Source: a virus. From it: DNA of 64,000 nucleotides. Each line of letters opens with the position of its first letter. Positions within the stretch are counted from its first letter, which is position 1. Shown here in pieces: positions 5,283 to 16,451 of this stretch. The notes under the pieces were generated by a model, which was not told the DNA's origin, did no database searches, and saw only the letters and a list, made by a program, of their open reading frames with translations. The translations under genes were made by a program, and so were the position numbers. Location: the IMG/VR virus record IMGVR_UViG_3300036766_000548, positions 1 through 64,000 of that record, one strand, 5' to 3'.

Positions 5283-5813
5283 ATGAAAGTAACAAAAAAG
5301 TCAGATAAAAGCAACAAACAAACTTTAGATAATTCTATCAAAAAAGCTGTAGGAAGGCCAAAAGATTCCGGTATTAAATATAATCCTAAAATATATCCAG
5401 ATATTGTAAAATCATTATTGGCAAAGGGATATGTTGAATCTCAGATACAAGAAATAATACATATTTCAGTAGCAACATTTAATTCATGGAAAAAGAAATA
5501 TCCAGAATTTGTAAAAGCATTAAAAGAGGGCAAGCAAGGGCCGATTGATAGAACAGTAAATACATTAGAAAAAGTAGCAAATGGATTCAAGGAAACAGTA
5601 AAGAAAGCAATAGTAGTTTCCGATGGAGCACAGATAGGAAGTCATATTGAAATGGTTGATATTGAAGAATATATTCCACCGCAAGTATCAGCTATTCGTT
5701 ATTATCTAAATAATAGAGATAAGGATAATTGGTCTGATAAGCAGAATATTGAGATAAATGGCAAAATGGAATACAAAGTTATTCCAGATGACGAACTAGA
5801 GGAAAAGGAGTAA
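5283..5813 (+). CDS. terS: Terminase small subunit
   Basis: GRP motif, HTH (ISVATFNSWKKKYPEF), YYLNNR..W.DK; lies upstream of terL. Confidence 0.8.
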   Translation: MKVTKKSDKSNKQTLDNSIKKAVGRPKDSGIKYNPKIYPDIVKSLLAKGYVESQIQEIIHISVATFNSWKKKYPEFVKALKEGKQGPIDRTVNTLEKVANGFKETVKKAIVVSDGAQIGSHIEMVDIEEYIPPQVSAIRYYLNNRDKDNWSDKQNIEINGKMEYKVIPDDELEEKE

Positions 5814-5816
5814 ACT

Positions 5817-5969
5817 ATGGGTGGACCAGGATCAGGACGTAGAGCAGGTGGTGGTAAAGGTAAATTAAAGGTAAAAGGTAATCCTGGAAAAATGGATGTT
5901 ACTAGTAAAGCCGCTCAAAATTCAATGAAATCAGCAAGAAAATCTGCATTAAGGAAAAGAAGTAAATAA
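5817..5969 (+). CDS. MGGPGSGR-family basic mini-protein copy 1 (50 aa; missing from ORF track)
   Basis: AAGGAG-N6-ATG; MGGPGSGRRAGGGKGKLKVKGNPGKMDVTSKAAQNSMKSARKSALRKRSK. Confidence 0.8.
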   Translation: MGGPGSGRRAGGGKGKLKVKGNPGKMDVTSKAAQNSMKSARKSALRKRSK

Positions 5970-6176
5970 ATGGATTTATCAAAGTTAGAGCAACAAGTAT
6001 ATAAAACTCTTTTAGCTAGTGAAGCTAAGTATTCTAAACAAATACAAAAGACTTTACTTGATGCCTTAACTTCCATTTATGGTGAAATGACAAAGATATA
6101 TAAAAGATATGCAATTAATCAAGTAATGCAAGGAGTAAAACATGGGTGGACCAGGAAGTGGAAGAAAGAAAGGTAG
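5970..6176 (+). pseudogene. Truncated copy of head morphogenesis (gp7) N-terminus
   Basis: First 48 aa are 36/48 identical to the N-terminus of 10928..11926, then unrelated. Confidence 0.8.
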
Positions 6177-6333
6177 TGCTGGGAGTAAACATCCCGGTAA
6201 ATCAAATAATATCGTATTGATGCAAAGAAGCCAATTAAATCATGCAAAGAAAATGGGTAAGAATATTTTATATGAAAAGAATAAATTAACTAAAATAAAG
6301 AATACATATTTGAAAAGCAATAAAAGCAAATAG
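6142..6333 (+). CDS. MGGPGSGR-family basic mini-protein copy 2
   Basis: AAGGAG-N6-ATG; shared N-terminal tag; Lys-rich. Confidence 0.8.
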   Translation: MGGPGSGRKKGSAGSKHPGKSNNIVLMQRSQLNHAKKMGKNILYEKNKLTKIKNTYLKSNKSK

Positions 6334-6338
6334 TATAA

Positions 6339-8816
6339 ATGCCCGAACAAATTGAAATAGACTTAAAGGGATTCTCAAAAAAGATAAATCCCAAGTTCAT
6401 TCCATTGATAAAGGATCGCCATCCATTACAAATAGTAGTTGGTGGTGCCAATAGTTCTAAATGTTTTGCCAAAGGCATGCAAATTGTAATGTATTCAGGT
6501 GAATTGAAAAATGTAGAAGATATCGTTATTGGTGATTTGTTAATGGGAATTGATTCAACTCCTAGAAAGGTATTAAATACAAATAATGGTTATGGGAAAC
6601 TATATAAAGTATACCAACACCGAGGAGATGATTATACAGTTAATGAAAATCATATTTTATGTTTGAAGAAAAGTAAAAGTTGCAATAGATATAAAGAAGA
6701 TGGAGATTATATAGAAATATCTGTTTCTGATTATTTGAATAAAAGCACAAGATGGAAAAGAAATTTTTTAGGATATAGGACTGGAATTGATTTCTCAAAT
6801 AAGGAAGTTTCTATCGATCCTTATTATCTTGGTTTGTGGTTAGGAGATGGTGATAAAAATAGATTGTCTATTACGTCAATAGATGATGAAATAATAGAAT
6901 ATATATATGATTATGCCAAGAAAATAGGCGAGCGTGTTTCAATGATAAATAAATATGGCTATAATATCAATCATATTAAATATTCAAATGAAGTAAAGAA
7001 AGAGATTGCTAATATTTTTGCTAATGGTATTGTTGGCCATGGTTGGAAAAAAGGAACATTGAGATTAGTATGTGATAAAACTGGAATAAGTAATAGAGTA
7101 TGTTATCAATGGCTGAAAAATAAATCATTCATTAAATTGGTGGAATATTATAAGAAGCATCCAAAAGAAATTGATTATGATATAATTGAAAAAGAAAAAC
7201 AACAGGAAACACTTTACAGTAAGTTTGTTGAATATAATCTATTTTACAATAAGCATATTCCTAATGATTATTTATATAATTCATATGATATTCGATTAAA
7301 GTTATTGGCTGGAATTATTGATACTGATGGAAGTATGAAGGCTAATTGTTATACAGTAATTCAAAAGGATGAAAAATTATCATTCCAAATAAAGTATTTA
7401 GCTAATTCATTAGGATTCAAGTGTTCAATAACTAAAAGAAAATGTGAATGTGTTAATAATGGAGTGATAGGCGATTACTATTCAATGTGTATTTCTGGTA
7501 ATACTGAAAAAATACCTTGTAGGATAAAAAGAAAGATAGTAAAAAATCAAAGTGATAGAAAAGATCATTCGGTAATAGGAATTGATATTATTCAAATGGA
7601 AGATGGCGAATATTATGGATTTACTGTAGATAAGGATAATAAAGTTTTACTATCTGATTTTACAATAACACACAATTCATATAGCTATGCAGAAAAGATT
7701 ATTTATCATACAATACGGGAAAAGTATTTCCGGTGTTTGGCTACACGAAAAGTAAAAAAGGATGTAAAGCATTCTGTCTACGATCAATTGCGCGAAGTAT
7801 TGAATAGGTATAAATTAGAAAACTATTTCACTTACAATAATACTGAAAGTAATATTGTTTGCAAGTTGAATGGAAATGATATATTAGGCGTAGGTCTTGA
7901 TGATGTAAACAAATTAAAATCATTCACCAATCCTACATTCTTTTGGGCAGAAGAAGCTGATCAAATGACTCCAGATGATATTGAGCAATTAAGTCTACGA
8001 TTGCGTGGCCCTGACTATTGTTTCTTTCAAGGTGGATTGACATTAAATCCAATCAACGCCCAGCATTGGATCAAGTTAAAATATTTTGATCATAAGAATG
8101 ATGGGTGGATAACACATCATTCTACATATAAGGATAATCAATTCCTTTCGCCTAAAATTATTCAAAGAATGGAAGCGATAACTGATCCATATTATATAAA
8201 AGTATATGTGAATGGAGAATGGGGAATATTTACAAATGGTGTATTCTCAAATTATATAATAGAGGATTTTGATTATACAGAAAACGATTTAGAAGATGTT
8301 TGTTATGGAATGGACTTTGGATTTACCCATGCCCAGGCGATTGAGTGCGCTGGATTCAAGGATGGCGAATTATATGTATTTGACGAGTTGTGGGAAAAGG
8401 GGAAAACAAACAATCAATTCATGGATGATGCGAAAGACTATTTCGGTGATAAATTATATGATATGAGGATGACATGTGATTCCGCCGATCCTGACAAGAT
8501 AATAGAATGGGATAGAAGTGGATTTAGAGTAGAATCCGCGAAAAAGGGCCCAGGATCAGTGCGGTTTGGCATTGAATATTTGGTTGATAAAAAGATACAT
8601 ATACATGAAAGCAAGTGTGCCAATATCGCAAAAGAGATTCAACAGTTCAGGCGCAAAGAAGACAAGAATGGAAATGTTACTGAGGATTTTATAGAAGTGA
8701 ATGATGATGGAATAGCGGCATTGCGATATGGTACTGAATATATTTGGTCAAATACAAATCAAGTTTTTTATGATGGCACTAATGATAAATGGTCATTAAG
8801 CGAATTGGGATTATAA
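6339..8816 (+). CDS. terL: Terminase large subunit (PBSX/SPP1-type), intein-containing
   Basis: Walker A GGANSSK/S, GLDDVNKLKS, Walker B WAEEA, LTLNP, GMDFG, nuclease DDGIAALRY. Confidence 0.95.
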   Translation: MPEQIEIDLKGFSKKINPKFIPLIKDRHPLQIVVGGANSSKCFAKGMQIVMYSGELKNVEDIVIGDLLMGIDSTPRKVLNTNNGYGKLYKVYQHRGDDYTVNENHILCLKKSKSCNRYKEDGDYIEISVSDYLNKSTRWKRNFLGYRTGIDFSNKEVSIDPYYLGLWLGDGDKNRLSITSIDDEIIEYIYDYAKKIGERVSMINKYGYNINHIKYSNEVKKEIANIFANGIVGHGWKKGTLRLVCDKTGISNRVCYQWLKNKSFIKLVEYYKKHPKEIDYDIIEKEKQQETLYSKFVEYNLFYNKHIPNDYLYNSYDIRLKLLAGIIDTDGSMKANCYTVIQKDEKLSFQIKYLANSLGFKCSITKRKCECVNNGVIGDYYSMCISGNTEKIPCRIKRKIVKNQSDRKDHSVIGIDIIQMEDGEYYGFTVDKDNKVLLSDFTITHNSYSYAEKIIYHTIREKYFRCLATRKVKKDVKHSVYDQLREVLNRYKLENYFTYNNTESNIVCKLNGNDILGVGLDDVNKLKSFTNPTFFWAEEADQMTPDDIEQLSLRLRGPDYCFFQGGLTLNPINAQHWIKLKYFDHKNDGWITHHSTYKDNQFLSPKIIQRMEAITDPYYIKVYVNGEWGIFTNGVFSNYIIEDFDYTENDLEDVCYGMDFGFTHAQAIECAGFKDGELYVFDELWEKGKTNNQFMDDAKDYFGDKLYDMRMTCDSADPDKIIEWDRSGFRVESAKKGPGSVRFGIEYLVDKKIHIHESKCANIAKEIQQFRRKEDKNGNVTEDFIEVNDDGIAALRYGTEYIWSNTNQVFYDGTNDKWSLSELGL
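6462..7676 (+). mobile_element. Intein (405 aa) with LAGLIDADG homing endonuclease, inserted in TerL Walker A
   Basis: Begins CFAKG, block B TVNENHIL, YYLGLWLGDG and LLAGIIDTDG, ends THN followed by Ser. Confidence 0.95.
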
Positions 8817-8830
8817 AGGAGATTTAATAA

Positions 8831-10381
8831 ATGACTTTACAAAAGACTTCTAAAATAGTTTTAACTAATGAAGATATCTTGAAATATATTCAGGATTATG
8901 AGATTAAAACAGTCCCTCGCTTGAATGATTTATGGGAATACTACAAAGGTAAGAATGTAAAGATCACCAATAGGAAAACCCCAGATCCAAACAATCCTGA
9001 TAATAAAATAATTGTTAGCTATGGCAGGAAAATCGTCACTACTTATACTGGTTATGGGTATAGACCAAAATATATTACATATAAACCAAATATTAAGAAA
9101 ACAGAAGAACAGATAAATTCAAACGAAATGCATGTATCTGATGCCACTACAAATATTCCCGATCCTGTAGAAAAAGTATATACTAATGAAATACAAATTA
9201 TTTATAATTCAAATAATGAACATATTAAAACAAATAGAGCTGGTAGGAATATAGCTATATTTGGTTTTAGTTATGAATTGTTGTATGTGGATTCTGAATA
9301 TCAATTAAATGACGGGCAATTAAATACATTGGTGGCCCCTAAATTCTTTACTGTTGACCCTAGGGAAATGGTAGTATTATATAATTATGATCCAGAACCA
9401 AAAATAATAATGGCAATTCGTTATTATAAAATATCAGATAATGAATATAAAGTAGAAGTTTATTACAAAAATATGGTGGAAAGGTATGTTCGCTATAGGG
9501 ATGAAACAAATAATACTGTAAATGAATGGAGATTGAAAGCGGATATAGAAAACCCATCTACAATAAATTTCTTTTCCGGTATTCCTGTAGTGGCTTTTTA
9601 TCGCGGCGATGAAATGCAATCCATCATGGAAAATGTTTTGACATTGATAGATTCCTATGATGTGCTAATAAGCGATTCCATGAATGAATTTGATAGATTC
9701 GCTTTTGCTTATTTGATAATGAAACGGATAAGCCTGACCAACCCACAATCCAAAAAAGATCCTATAACAACAAGTAATGCATTAAAGGAATTAAAGAGAC
9801 GACGGGTGTTCGAGGGATTAGATAAAGATTCAGATGTAAAATTTCTAACAAAAGATATCCCCACAGAGTTCATTGAATATATGGCGAGTAAACTGAAAGA
9901 GGAAATACATTTACAATCCCATGTTCCCGATTTCACCACATTGACTGGGGCATTAAGCGGCGCTGCTATTGACAGGTTATTATTCGATTTTGAGAACTTA
10001 GTATCTAGCGATGAAGCTGATTTTGATGTGGCATTAATTAGAAGGGGAGAATTAATAACAGATTTTCTAGTTAAATTAGGAAGACTTTCTAAGGATTCTG
10101 ATTTTGCTACTATGATAAATATTTCGCATAAGCGTAATTTGCCATTGGACAGGAATAGTTTTGCTACAATGGCACAATTATTAGTAAATGGCGGATTTAG
10201 TAGAAGAATGATAGTATCGCAGATGCCCGAGGATATGGTGCCGGATGTAGAGGCAGAACTTGAGGAAGAAAAAAAGGAATACGTTGCGATGAATGGCGCT
10301 GATAATTTATATAATAATATAGATGAATTTGGAAATCCTATTGAAGAGATAGAAAATACTAATTTAGAACAAGGAGCATGA
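8831..10381 (+). CDS. Portal protein (SPP1 gp6-like)
   Basis: YYKG, NKIIVSY, LIDSYD..S...NE...F, SHVPDF, SGAA motifs; follows terL. Confidence 0.9.
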   Translation: MTLQKTSKIVLTNEDILKYIQDYEIKTVPRLNDLWEYYKGKNVKITNRKTPDPNNPDNKIIVSYGRKIVTTYTGYGYRPKYITYKPNIKKTEEQINSNEMHVSDATTNIPDPVEKVYTNEIQIIYNSNNEHIKTNRAGRNIAIFGFSYELLYVDSEYQLNDGQLNTLVAPKFFTVDPREMVVLYNYDPEPKIIMAIRYYKISDNEYKVEVYYKNMVERYVRYRDETNNTVNEWRLKADIENPSTINFFSGIPVVAFYRGDEMQSIMENVLTLIDSYDVLISDSMNEFDRFAFAYLIMKRISLTNPQSKKDPITTSNALKELKRRRVFEGLDKDSDVKFLTKDIPTEFIEYMASKLKEEIHLQSHVPDFTTLTGALSGAAIDRLLFDFENLVSSDEADFDVALIRRGELITDFLVKLGRLSKDSDFATMINISHKRNLPLDRNSFATMAQLLVNGGFSRRMIVSQMPEDMVPDVEAELEEEKKEYVAMNGADNLYNNIDEFGNPIEEIENTNLEQGA

Positions 10382-10382
10382 T

Positions 10383-10652
10383 ATGGGTGGACCAGGATCA
10401 GGAAGAAGGAAGGGCGGCGGTAAAGGATTTAGTACATCAGGTAAAAATCCAAGTTTAGGTAGGGCCGGGGCATTTAAATCAATGTTCCAAAAAGGGCCTT
10501 CAACAAAGCAAATGAGAACTGAAAAGAAAGCATTGCAAATTAAAAAAGCTACAAATAGAAAAAACGCTAGCGTGCAATTGTCTAAACCATCTACTAAAGG
10601 CGTTCAAAAAATGTATTATAAAAATGTTAGGTCTGCTAATAAGGCACATTAA
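10383..10652 (+). CDS. MGGPGSGR-family basic mini-protein copy 3
   Basis: AAGGAG-N6-ATG; shared tag. Confidence 0.8.
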   Translation: MGGPGSGRRKGGGKGFSTSGKNPSLGRAGAFKSMFQKGPSTKQMRTEKKALQIKKATNRKNASVQLSKPSTKGVQKMYYKNVRSANKAH

Positions 10653-10703
10653 ATGACTTTATCAAAGTTAGAGCATCAAGCATTAAATACTCTATTAAAA
10701 TAA
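10653..10703 (+). pseudogene. 16-aa stub of gp7 5' end (MTLSKLEHQALNTLLK*)
   Basis: 10658-10700 is identical (43 nt) to 10933-10975. Confidence 0.8.
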
Positions 10704-10716
10704 GAAGGAGCATAAT

Positions 10717-10923
10717 ATGGGTGGACCAGGATCAGGAAGAAGGAAAGGTGGTGGTAAAATGCAAGGTATCATGGGGGCAAAATTTAAAAGAACAAAACCA
10801 TTAAGTGAATATGAAAGAGTATTGAAAAAAAATCCAGCAATTCAGACTTCTAAGCTGGGAAGATCACCAACTAGAAAAACAAACATTAAAATACCATCTA
10901 GACGTCAATATCCTACGTGGTAA
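10717..10923 (+). CDS. MGGPGSGR-family basic mini-protein copy 4
   Basis: AAGGAG-N6-ATG; shared tag. Confidence 0.8.
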   Translation: MGGPGSGRRKGGGKMQGIMGAKFKRTKPLSEYERVLKKNPAIQTSKLGRSPTRKTNIKIPSRRQYPTW

Positions 10924-10927
10924 TTAA

Positions 10928-11926
10928 ATGGATTTATCAAAGTTAGAGCATCAAGCATTAAATACTCTATTAAAAAATGAAGCTAAGTATTCTAAACAAA
11001 TACAACAGGCCTTGCTTGATTCTCTAACTAATATTTATGGTGAAATGACAAAGATATATTCTAAGTATGCAAAAGTAATTAAGGCGGGCGAAGTTCCTAA
11101 ATTGACTAAAGCCGAAATGACCAAGTATAATAAATATTCCACGATGGAAGATTCCATAATGAAGCAATTAGACCCTGCAATAAAAGCGAATATAAAATCT
11201 ATAAAGAAATTATTGCCTGAACAATTCAACCAAAGCTTTTTCCATTATGCATGGGCAATAGATAATGCTACTGGATTGAGGTTATCATGGGGATTAGTAA
11301 ATACAAAAGCATTGATTGGGGCTTTCGATATAACCAATCCTAAAAATATTGAATTACAGGAAGCTCTAAAAAATTATGGGCCCACTGCAAAGAAAAGAAT
11401 TAGAGCGGCTTTGTTGAATGGTTTAAGTCAAGGAAAGAGTTATAGTCAAATGGCCGGTGATTTGAAAAAATCTATGAATAAGATATATAGTTCAGCTATG
11501 ACGATAGTCCGAACGGAAGGACAGACTGCCATCAATGCTGGGCAAACAATTGCTTATACTAGAGCAATAGAAAATGGTGTGCAGGGCAATGAAGTCTGGG
11601 AAGCCACTAGAGATGCAAGGACTAGACAAGATCATGGATATGCGGATGGGCAAAGGCGCGGAGAAATAATAGAAGGAGCATTTAGTATTGGTGGCAATCC
11701 AGCTTTATATCCTGCCGACCCACAATTACCAGCAGGTGAAAGAATTAATTGCCGATGTAATACTAGATTTGAAATAGATGGATATTCACCTCAATTAATG
11801 AGGACTAGGGAAGAAGGGATTCTGCCTTATATGAATTACCAGTCATATGCAGAACAATATCATCCAGACTGGGTAGATAAAGAAATTCGTTCAATTGTTA
11901 AAAGTAAGAAGTTTGCCGAAGTATAA
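10928..11926 (+). CDS. Head morphogenesis / minor capsid protein (SPP1 gp7, MuF-like)
   Basis: IVRTE, W.ATRDARTR..H...DGQ, P.DP.LPA.ERINCRC. Confidence 0.9.
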   Translation: MDLSKLEHQALNTLLKNEAKYSKQIQQALLDSLTNIYGEMTKIYSKYAKVIKAGEVPKLTKAEMTKYNKYSTMEDSIMKQLDPAIKANIKSIKKLLPEQFNQSFFHYAWAIDNATGLRLSWGLVNTKALIGAFDITNPKNIELQEALKNYGPTAKKRIRAALLNGLSQGKSYSQMAGDLKKSMNKIYSSAMTIVRTEGQTAINAGQTIAYTRAIENGVQGNEVWEATRDARTRQDHGYADGQRRGEIIEGAFSIGGNPALYPADPQLPAGERINCRCNTRFEIDGYSPQLMRTREEGILPYMNYQSYAEQYHPDWVDKEIRSIVKSKKFAEV

Positions 11927-12003: not shown

Positions 12004-12144
12004 ATGCCATTAACGAAAAAAGGTGTAAAGGTTAAGAAAGCATTCGAGGGAGAGTACGGAAAGAAGAAAGGTGAACAGGTATTTTATGCTACTGAGAACA
12101 AACGTAAAATGAAAGGTTCAGTAAAAGGCAAGAAAAAGAAATGA
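12004..12144 (+). CDS. Small basic phage protein (46 aa; MPLTKKG...YGKKKGEQVFYA)
   Basis: GGAGG RBS; read manually; resembles a motif common in phage small proteins. Confidence 0.7.
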   Translation: MPLTKKGVKVKKAFEGEYGKKKGEQVFYATENKRKMKGSVKGKKKK

Positions 12145-12371
12145 TTACAATAGAAAAAGAAATGATTACAATGGAAAAACAAATTGCCATCATTAAGGAT
12201 TTGGAAATTATTGGTAAACAAATTTCCGATGAAATTGAAAAAAACAAAATTATGAAACAAATGATATTGAGCGAGGAGGCGGCATTAGATGTGAAATTAA
12301 CATATAACTATAAAGCAAAAGTAGATGCGTATGATGTATTAAAAGAAATAATAATCAAAGGAATTGTATGA
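12141..12371 (+). CDS. Hypothetical protein
   Basis: ATGA overlap; imperfect 21-nt tandem duplication at its 5' end. Confidence 0.55.
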   Translation: MITIEKEMITMEKQIAIIKDLEIIGKQISDEIEKNKIMKQMILSEEAALDVKLTYNYKAKVDAYDVLKEIIIKGIV

Positions 12372-13023: not shown

Positions 13024-13350
13024 ATGTTAACGATCAGGCAAAGGAAACTTGACGCGCGGGCTCATAGGCAGGAATCTCTCCATGGGGTTACTACTGAAAA
13101 GACCTTAATCAAAACTCCACAGCCAAAGAATTTTCCTGTTAATGAAATTATAAAATTAGGTGCTCCATTATCAAAAGAATTAAAAAAAGAAATGCCATTA
13201 GTCAAGAAAATCTTAATTAAATCCCCTGTAGTTACAGAGGCAATCAAGCGTGGCCCTGGTCGCCCGCGAAAGATTGAATCTGAAAAAATATCAAAAGTAG
13301 AAAAGCGATTAACAGGGAAAAAGACTGTTAAGAGCAAAGGAAAAAGATAA
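13024..13350 (+). CDS. Basic protein with AT-hook-like motif
   Basis: KRGPGRPRK; Lys-rich; GAGGAG RBS. Confidence 0.6.
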   Translation: MLTIRQRKLDARAHRQESLHGVTTEKTLIKTPQPKNFPVNEIIKLGAPLSKELKKEMPLVKKILIKSPVVTEAIKRGPGRPRKIESEKISKVEKRLTGKKTVKSKGKR

Positions 13351-15377: not shown

Positions 15378-15896
15378 ATGCCTGGTGTACCAGTAACCTC
15401 TAATCCCATTAGTAACGATGGTTATAGACTCGTAGAAGATCAAAGTGATTATGAAATAATTTTAGGACATAGATATTCTACATTTTATAGCACAACTATA
15501 TCAGGAAGTATAGGAACAAATATTTTAGCAATTACCACTAATTCTATAAAAATATGTGAAGCGTGGTTTTCAATAGAAGTTGATAAGGCTGGTTTATATG
15601 AATTATATGAAGGCGCGGTAATATCTTCTGGTTCGGTATTGACTTTATTTAATAATAATAGGAATAGTTCTAATGTTGCCGATTGTACAGTAGTAGGCAA
15701 TCCAAACGTTTCTACCGTAGGAACATTTATCGGAGCGCATGTGATAGGTTCTGCAACGGGTGGAACATCTAAATCTGGTGGAAGTTCTACTACGAATAAA
15801 TATCAATTAAAGTATAACACTACATATATATTAAGATTTACCGCAGATGTTTCTAGTACAAGAGTTACACAAGGAATTTATTGGAGGGAAATATAA
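15378..15896 (+). CDS. Ser/Thr/Gly-rich structural protein (paralog A)
   Basis: Shares FNNNxNSS, GT and YxxRFxADxxSTR with next gene. Confidence 0.6.
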   Translation: MPGVPVTSNPISNDGYRLVEDQSDYEIILGHRYSTFYSTTISGSIGTNILAITTNSIKICEAWFSIEVDKAGLYELYEGAVISSGSVLTLFNNNRNSSNVADCTVVGNPNVSTVGTFIGAHVIGSATGGTSKSGGSSTTNKYQLKYNTTYILRFTADVSSTRVTQGIYWREI

Positions 15897-16451
15897 ATGC
15901 CTTATCCATATAATCCTAAAATAAACATAAACATAAACAGTCCTTTAGATGATTCTGGATATCTTGTTGGAATTGATATTATACATCACGAAATACATGA
16001 GGGTAATCATTATTCCACATCTTACTACGAAAAAATTGGTTCTGGAACTGCAATAAATGTTTTAATTACTGTAGGCACTAAATCAATACATATGGTTGGC
16101 GAAATGGTTTCTGATAATCCTGGGATGGCCACATTTAGTAAATCCCCCAATGCCACTACTACAAGTTCTACAGCAATTACTTGTTTTAATAATAATGGCA
16201 ATAGTTCAAAAACAACTGATACGGTATTTACTGTTGGTGGTACATATACAAGTTCCGGAACTATATTAAGGACTTATTTATTTGGTAGTAGTTCAGGAAC
16301 TGGAGGCAATAAAATATCAATGGGTTCTACAGCTGGTGAAATAAACGAAGCTATTTTAACTCCTGGAGACAAATATTTAATTAGATTTGTTGCTGATGGA
16401 GCGTCTACAAGAACAATTATTAGAACAGCTTTTTATGAACAGGATTGGTAA
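15897..16451 (+). CDS. Ser/Thr/Gly-rich structural protein (paralog B)
   Basis: HHEIHEG motif; paralogous to previous gene. Confidence 0.6.
   Translation: MPYPYNPKINININSPLDDSGYLVGIDIIHHEIHEGNHYSTSYYEKIGSGTAINVLITVGTKSIHMVGEMVSDNPGMATFSKSPNATTTSSTAITCFNNNGNSSKTTDTVFTVGGTYTSSGTILRTYLFGSSSGTGGNKISMGSTAGEINEAILTPGDKYLIRFVADGASTRTIIRTAFYEQDW

Follow-up and report, generated by a model that had tools for sequence, protein, structure and literature searches.

The window analysed here, the first 64,000 nucleotides (nt) of the IMG/VR virus record IMGVR_UViG_3300036766_000548, belongs to an uncultured phage whose 78,011-bp record is complete, with direct terminal repeats, and AT-rich (33% GC). It contains four small genes, here called mini1 to mini4, whose products all begin with the tag MGGPGSGR[RK]xG and continue as unrelated basic tails. 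In proteins of other phages the same seven residues, GGPGSGR, also occur at internal joints, a form of the motif that is a new finding of the present analysis, and the simplest account of all forms would be that GGPGSGR marks the start of a module. For the four genes we favour the reading that they encode stand-alone cargo modules of the phage head, with a GGPGSGR end that would be exposed when the initiator methionine is removed. We put the probability of this reading at about 0.45, i.e. slightly below even.

An earlier description of this DNA, made from its letters alone (the sequence-only reading), had presented the four genes as a family with a constant N-terminus and variable basic cargo, and as far as the genes themselves are concerned it was confirmed, with the coordinates given in Table 1. 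The four open reading frames (ORFs) lie on the plus strand, encode 50-89 amino acids (aa), and are each led by AAGGAG (a Shine-Dalgarno sequence, SD), a 6-nt spacer and the 15-mer ATGGGTGGACCAGGA with which the tag opens. The window contains exactly four copies of the 15-mer, a count reached in none of 100 shuffles, and a pattern for DNA coding for GGPGSGR has four sites in the entire genome, each immediately 3' of an ATG. All four of these ATGs open at least 50 sense codons, while the expectation from shuffled sequence is about 2.5% of ATGs. As the same description had placed them, the genes form two pairs, one between the small terminase gene terS and the intein-bearing large terminase gene terL, the other between the genes for an SPP1-type portal and a MuF/gp7-like head morphogenesis protein; the four flanking genes were identified by matches to phrog_309, Terminase_3, PF05133 and PF04233, respectively. 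The genes for a DUF4355 scaffold and for the capsid protein are located farther downstream.

The tails are rich in K and R (pI of the products 10.8-12.0) and are indeed unrelated, since beyond about residue 13 the four products cannot be aligned with one another, apart from a weak GGGKG...NP similarity between mini1 and mini3. Within the tag, Ser6 is encoded by AGT in mini2 and by TCA in mini1, mini3 and mini4. None of the four gave a Pfam match (E ≤ 0.1) or a PHROG match. The mini-proteins are predicted to be disordered, with an ESM Atlas model of mini3 at a confidence (pLDDT) of 0.42. An orthologue of mini3 (P0002, 86 aa, 78% identity) was found in an ENA metagenome, and the neighbours in the ESM Atlas are all unnamed, with scores of at most 0.80. 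A comparison of the tag with the phage's own scaffold, capsid and portal proteins found no terminus or segment in the window of which it could be a copy.

A search of IMG/VR with a degenerate DNA pattern for the start motif showed that the family extends well beyond this phage. The motif was found in 100 loci, many of them with two to five copies, and about 40 of these loci come from the same phage clade as the window (portal identity 50-75%). Relatives carry one to five tagged mini-genes, and the complete genomes of the clade four or five. We collected 72 distinct small basic members (medians 66 aa for length and +15 for net charge), of which 68 have an SD. Their cargo contains 21% K, 9.6% G, 9.1% S, 7.6% A, 6.9% R and 5.5% D+E, with no Cys and few hydrophobic residues, a composition far from that of a random translation of AT-rich DNA. 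The cargo of the 72 members falls into 62 clusters, 56 of which are singletons with no detectable relative, whereas five conserved cargo groups gave ratios of non-synonymous to synonymous substitution (dN/dS) of 0.14-0.68, indicating purifying selection. Alignment of 71 members gave a mean column identity of 17%, and M1 to R8 were common to all of them; it should be underlined that these eight "invariant" residues were set by the search patterns, and that the variants GGKGSGR, GGQGSGR and GGAGSGR exist outside these counts.

Since the codon for Ser6 belongs to the TCN family in 29 members and to the AGY family in the other 43, and both AGR and CGN codons are used for Arg8, the tag is kept at the protein level and not at the DNA level. 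It is retained also in high-GC phages. With regard to position, the slots that hold most copies in the clade are terS/terL, terL/portal, portal/MuF, after MuF, before the scaffold gene, and among the connector genes. The search of phage genomes for copy number, position and cargo that the sequence-only reading had called for thus gave homologues that are multi-copy, hypervariable in cargo and mostly located in the head/structural operon, and not single-copy genes conserved over their full length. The longer string GGPGSGRKKG was preceded by ATG in 46 of 48 distinct cases. GGPGSGR is nearly absent from cells, with two matches in a search of 185,579 prokaryote species represented by one genome each, and a full-text literature search for GGPGSGR found no paper that contains the motif. 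The tagged modules are apparently a broad, virus-only and undescribed class.

The motif also occurs away from the start of proteins. A profile of the 71 mini-proteins, run against 1.84 billion representative proteins (E ≤ 0.001), gave 95 matches, about 65 of which are small proteins that match from residue 1, while the other 30 are long (160-1177 aa) and carry one to six internal copies of GGPGSGR at a spacing of 46-372 aa. A second IMG/VR scan, whose pattern fixed K at position -1 and H at +8, added 48 further loci. In the resulting 133 distinct internal contexts, position -3 is V, I, L, M or F in 92%, position -2 is variable, and position -1 is K, A or E; behind the motif follow H/K/R, P/K/A, E/G and G. 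Judged by the unbiased profile matches, position -1 is K in 34 cases, A in 24 and E in 15. The consensus of the joint is accordingly [VILMF]-x-[KAE]-GGPGSGR-[HKR]. In many proteins, only a leader of 5-30 aa stands ahead of the motif, as in MQLVK/GG or MSDRIEKSIEIWLGEITK/GG (the slash marks the joint). A methionine is located exactly at the joint in L040 and L032 (IKM/GG and VKM/GG), as if fused and free forms interconvert there.

The proteins that bear internal motifs contain domains typed as portal (L032, where the tag follows the domain), MuF (L145), XkdF protease (L153 and L040), head maturation protease (L187) and InPase (P0036), and further ones typed as zeta toxin, pentapeptide repeat (L147), methyltransferase (L158), ParB-like and DNA-mimic. 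In L040 the tag separates the XkdF-like protease domain from a zeta-toxin "minor head protein". Behind internal joints, many modules are acidic or enzymatic. A tape measure protein also begins with the tag, and in L059 the tag is on a protein just ahead of an internal virion protein. A long series is found in a 113.6-kb phage record, IMG/VR contig 3300027749_000055 (G001; L151, L156, L167, L176, L177 and L183), with 27 joints on one strand; these cluster at 3-11 kb, 68-79 kb and 106-112 kb, the middle cluster being next to an XkdF protease gene (about 80.1-80.4 kb), and a reversed-pattern control gave 0. The InPase domain was defined in phage polyvalent proteins, for which packaging in the virion and injection are assumed (PMC5512222). 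In cultured phages this domain is annotated under portal or minor head protein, and in Serratia phage MTx, where it is fused to the portal, the motif is missing. A locus search with P0036 found only InPase relatives without the motif, and one with P0039 found nothing. Because the motif punctuates proteins in which portal, MuF or prohead protease domains are fused to effector-like modules, it points to cargo inside the head, which gives the proposed link of the family to such cargo indirect support.

Sites of prohead and assemblin-type proteases are hydrophobic at P3 and restricted to a few residues at P1, and by analogy the joint has the shape of such a maturation-protease site. A prohead protease of the S78 clan (PF14550 or PF04586) was present in all seven near-complete genomes with internal or leader-preceded joints and in none of the eight near-complete genomes with the motif only at starts, the present phage included, a co-occurrence that is suggestive. 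The present genome gave no match to PF04586 (S78), PF14550 (S78_2), PF03420 (S77) or PF00574 (ClpP), although the PF03420 control matched nothing anywhere, which makes that negative a weak one. Inspection of the window's head module for an HExxH peptidase found none. In two other members of the clade, 169-aa ORFs gave weak ClpP-like matches (G016:C1:21474-21674, E 2.6e-6; G024:C1:10323-10589, E 7.6e-8), with none in the present genome. In a complete relative from the clade, the two tagged mini-genes that come right behind MuF enclose an ORF of 98 aa whose product has the zincin-like motif HELVHH (L001:3465-3761, equal to L099:7534-7830), and the window is without a counterpart of it.

These forms could be brought together in one mechanism. 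In phages with an S78-clan protease of the HK97/XkdF type, the modules are chained in large head-associated "polyvalent" proteins or placed behind short leaders, and the protease would cut just before GGPGSGR. In the present SPP1-like phage, which has a DUF4355 scaffold, a portal and MuF and no detectable protease, each module instead has one small gene of its own, slotted between essential head genes, with a strong SD for its translation and coupling to the gene that follows. Methionine aminopeptidase generally removes an initial methionine that stands before glycine, and here it would leave the same GGPGSGR N-terminus as cleavage does elsewhere. The disordered polycation cargo (+14 to +21) would then be loaded into the head with the tag as common handle. 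Inside the head the peptides would be associated with DNA and neutralise charge, and they would possibly exit with the DNA at infection. Since the motif is kept where no protease exists, the tag must act by itself. As to what the handle binds, DNA or a conserved head component may be proposed; co-folding of portal, MuF and mini4 with alignments scored 0.01, below the mark of 0.32, and speaks neither for nor against such binding.

A generalisation of this reading, which we hold only tentatively and consider doubtful as a whole, is that GGPGSGR serves head cargo of phages in general as a portable handle, a "new N-terminus" that either an S78-clan cut at [VILMF]-x-[KAE]/GGPGSGR or the removal of methionine would expose. 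The handle would dock its module to DNA or a conserved head component, so that the module would stay in the capsid and leave with the genome, and the present clade would represent its minimal form, a bare handle on a polycation. An anti-defence role of the peptides, which had also been suggested from the sequence, is pure speculation. The choice of cargo for capsids is understood for T4 and a few other phages, but not for SPP1-like and most uncultured phages, and a virus-specific motif of seven residues offers a concrete candidate, open to test, for a signal of wide occurrence in cargo choice or processing. If the handle is real, head cargo would become predictable from sequence in metagenomic phages, XkdF/S78-type prohead proteases would acquire a candidate cleavage rule, and a short tag would be available for loading foreign proteins into capsids.

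Several observations weigh against the head-cargo reading. Half a protease site gives a phage without protease no reason to keep the motif, so that a second function must be assumed, and the genomes behind the protease association are few and partly related. The motif is found in phages with at least three portal families (phrog_64, phrog_533 and phrog_33693), which disfavours a single fixed structural docking partner. Moreover, the tag heads several unrelated families of small terminase, namely Terminase_4 (L008 and the L014 group), phrog_83 (L030) and phrog_4044 (L047), and in L051 and L065 it heads proteins directly upstream of terL, which are called terminases by position; two HNH endonucleases begin with it as well. 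A minority of the mini-genes lie beside genes for DnaE, PolA, primase, SbcCD or sugar modification. Finally, no cultured relative of the phage was found, the best portal match being 28% identical, nor any cultured phage with the tag, and blastn with the tag DNA gave matches at chance level only.

Given the tag's place at the start of small terminases and HNH endonucleases, and the location of some mini-genes in replication modules, the strongest rival, though in our judgement an unlikely one, is that the tag is an N-terminal DNA-binding arm, flexible, rich in G and P and ending in R-[KR], that would contact DNA in a groove or at its phosphates. In that case the mini-proteins would be unpackaged, non-specific DNA-binding polycations of the infected cell, which might, for example, condense or shield replicated DNA or aid the start of packaging. 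Small terminases provide a precedent for such an arm: the structure of the HK97 small terminase with DNA shows K4, R5 and R7 of the N-terminal arm in the minor groove, a basic N-terminal residue is common to all small terminases solved so far, and the Sf6 mutant K6A loses DNA binding (PMC11331095). DNA is also a ligand common to all phages, which would account for an identical motif across differing portal and capsid families. The genome is AT-rich, and a neighbouring gene (13024-13350) encodes a canonical AT-hook, KRGPGRPRK.

The tag resembles the arms of HK97 gp1 and Sf6 gp1, the AT-hook and SPKK-type groove binders in being a short, flexible and basic N-terminus, and on the several small-terminase families it sits in just that place. 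However, with G-S-G-R-[KR]-[KPA] it is without the R-G-R-P core of the AT-hook (PF02178), and it has no family match, a negative (Pfam, E ≤ 0.1) that is weak since the canonical KRGPGRPRK of the neighbour gave no Pfam match either. The tagged Terminase_4 proteins gave no sequence match in the PDB, which leaves a link to the HK97 structure hypothetical. The acidic or enzymatic modules behind many of the internal joints are not DNA-binding, and a DNA arm leaves unexplained the hydrophobic residue at -3, the K/A/E at -1, the 5-aa leaders (MQLVK/GG) and the co-occurrence with prohead proteases. The arm and the head-cargo reading would be compatible, in that both would fit proteins which accompany the packaged genome and carry a DNA-binding handle. 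Were the arm reading true, it would define a new short DNA-binding motif common to small terminases and protamine-like phage peptides.

The surroundings of the mini-genes bear both on the favoured reading and on a further, improbable explanation, namely that the peptides themselves are nearly functionless. The order at both sites is tagged mini-gene, MuF stub, tagged mini-gene. The first stub begins directly behind the stop codon of mini1 and overlaps the start of mini2; it corresponds to a 153-nt repeat (D2) with 83-85% identity to 10920-11072, the 5' end of MuF, is 87% identical to the MuF 5' end of the relative L080, and has a weak match to the minor head protein family phrog_115. The second stub belongs to a 60-nt repeat (D3, 10648-10707) with 93% identity to 10923-10982. 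Over 98 nt, mini1 has about 80% nucleotide identity to a mini-gene just ahead of MuF in the relative L033. Since mini1 and its stub together match the portal/MuF arrangement of L033, a unit consisting of mini1 and the 5' end of MuF was copied from a portal/MuF junction into the terS/terL slot. The tag and SD region of mini4 is 91% identical to that of mini3 over 57 nt, and at synonymous positions the identity of tag DNA is 0.70 within genomes versus 0.57 between genomes (permutation p < 0.0005), which fits recent duplication or gene conversion. In the favoured reading, new copies would arise by recombination between two sites, the tag and SD DNA and the start of the gene downstream, and we propose that the MuF stubs are the footprint of this process. 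The idea of the sequence-only reading that the conserved 5' DNA acts as an exchange point gains support from the likeness of tags within genomes and from the match of mini1 and its stub to L033, and it can be extended to the starts of the flanking genes.

The mini-genes are also coupled to their neighbours. Their SDs are embedded in the last codons of the preceding gene (terS for mini1, portal for mini3), and terL and MuF begin 0-5 nt past the stop codon of a mini-gene or stub, without an SD of their own. Throughout the clade 17 of 26 closely following genes are without SD, as are about half of the other genes by the same loose criterion. Promoter-like and terminator-like sites did not exceed the shuffled expectation, and none brackets the mini-genes. 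The SDs within upstream genes, the coupling and the missing brackets indicate that the mini-genes are integral parts of the late operon, and morons, with a promoter and terminator of their own, were rejected on the same grounds.

Such an arrangement would suit strongly initiated leader ORFs that feed ribosomes into the SD-less terL and MuF, combined with cassettes that spread by way of the tag and SD DNA. The mostly unrelated cargo of different copies, the greater likeness of tags within genomes and the unequal recombination that the stubs indicate would all be accounted for in this manner. On the other hand, functionless peptides would not be expected to have the non-random cargo composition described above (K 21%, no Cys), to stay open across 45-100 codons, to show purifying selection in the conserved cargo groups, or to keep the tag as protein across codon families and in high-GC phages; the SD-less followers also lose weight against the equally SD-less half of the other genes.

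A strict capsid targeting sequence of the T4 type, the mechanism that the sequence-only reading had drawn on, is very improbable here. In T4, the internal proteins IPI, IPII, IPIII and Alt share a short constant N-terminal capsid targeting sequence, and their lysines contact the packaged DNA (PMC3012670). The design of the genes is alike, with a short constant N-terminus on unrelated, mostly small basic proteins encoded near head genes, and both sets are diverse and fast-changing; M1-R8, shared by the 71 aligned members as fixed by the search, and the 62 cargo clusters among 72 members are of the form that such a sequence would give. In T4, however, the leader attaches to a scaffold core and the protease gp21 cuts it off, whereas the complete genome of the present phage gave none of the four protease matches looked for, and its scaffold is DUF4355, SPP1-like and not a T4-type core. 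The sequences are unrelated, and the tag runs from residue 2, so that only the methionine lies upstream to be removed. In the phages that do encode a protease the motif lies behind the putative cut and would stay on the cargo, while the T4 leader is upstream of the cut and is lost. The probability left over by the head-cargo and DNA-arm readings is spread over such weaker rivals. N-myristoylation (MGxxxS) and look-alikes of adenovirus-protease sites were dropped as candidates, since these phages infect bacteria and enzymes of this kind are absent.

Two other known systems share single features with the mini-proteins. Polyvalent proteins and effectors fused to MuF, portal or protease (Iyer et al. 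2017, PMC5512222; MuF polymorphic toxins, PMC5576092) are proteins of the kind in which the internal form of the motif occurs. In them InPase, ParB-like, zeta toxin, methyltransferase and pentapeptide modules are fused to MuF, portal and prohead protease, and the present mini-genes flank portal and MuF; the four proteins of the window differ in being single tiny modules of 50-89 aa, without enzymatic domain or any domain match, so that the motif alone is shared. For processing, PMC5512222 proposes zincin peptidase domains, and not S78-clan proteases, and term searches of its full text gave no statement on a conserved joint or linker.

The second likeness is to DNA-condensing peptides. Adenovirus VII and mu, protamines and histone tails are small disordered polycations rich in K, R, S, G and A, and the mini-proteins resemble them in composition only, by their strong net positive charge. 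The similarity to the histone H4 tail that had been noted in the tag did not withstand comparison, as the profile of the 71 members found nothing in the PDB at E ≤ 10, histones included, and the model is disordered, with no fold.

Table 1. Tagged mini-genes, MuF stubs and neighbouring genes in the head region of the window
Feature	Position	Strand	Description
terS, small terminase	5283..5813	+	phrog_309, E 5.8e-30; untagged; own GRPK arm ahead of helix-turn-helix
mini1	5817..5969	+	50 aa, MGGPGSGRRAGGGKG..., net charge +14; SD AAGGAG inside last terS codons
MuF stub ORF	5970..6176	+	68 aa; copies first ~48 MuF codons; begins directly behind mini1 stop; overlaps mini2 start
mini2	6142..6333	+	63 aa, MGGPGSGRKKGSAGSK..., net charge +15; terL begins 5 nt past stop
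terL, large terminase	6339..8816	+	Terminase_3 at residues 445-627; Hom_end_hint, Hom_end and LAGLIDADG_3 at residues 42-389
SPP1-type portal	8831..10381	+	PF05133, E 2e-60
mini3	10383..10652	+	89 aa, net charge +21; SD inside last portal codons
Second MuF 5' stub	10654..10704	+	16 codons, then stop; between mini3 and mini4
mini4	10717..10923	+	68 aa, net charge +16; MuF begins 4 nt past stop
MuF / SPP1 gp7-like head morphogenesis protein	10928..11926	+	Phage_Mu_F PF04233, E 8.5e-15; 5' end is source of the stubs
Untagged basic protein	12004..12144	+	46 aa, net charge +13; kept in relatives

The untagged basic protein downstream of MuF possibly belongs to the same cargo set as the tagged mini-proteins. 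Its N-terminal domain (MPLTK.G...YG..KG..VFYA) recurs in the metagenomic protein P0043, where three GGPGSGR modules are fused to it, and in L001, where a longer tail is attached. Where the gene meets the next ORF, a perfect 21-nt tandem duplication (AGAAAAAGAAATGATTACAAT twice) covers 12131-12172. In the locus L096 (IMG/VR 3300029286_002476) there is no portal match between terL and MuF, and two tagged mini-genes (one cut to 20 aa) together with a relative of the gene at 12004 are found there instead, an arrangement that may be a rearrangement or an assembly artefact.

Some further features of the region deserve mention. The intein of terL, with a Hint domain and a LAGLIDADG homing endonuclease at about residues 42-389, is missing from the relatives L099 and L098, in which terL is uninterrupted and about 420 aa long. 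The AT-hook protein at 13024-13350 is a conserved basic protein of 108 aa (net charge +20) whose gene overlaps the start of the DUF4355 scaffold gene; a homologue lies just ahead of the scaffold gene in about nine clade relatives, with the hook kept as KRG[PR]GRP[PRK]K. Downstream of the capsid gene, two adjacent paralogues of 172 and 184 aa (15378-15896 and 15897-16451) have no family match, and the product of the second contains the motif IIHHEIHEG, which is kept in relatives (IVHHE, IIHHE, WHHECHA) and may be a metal-binding site.

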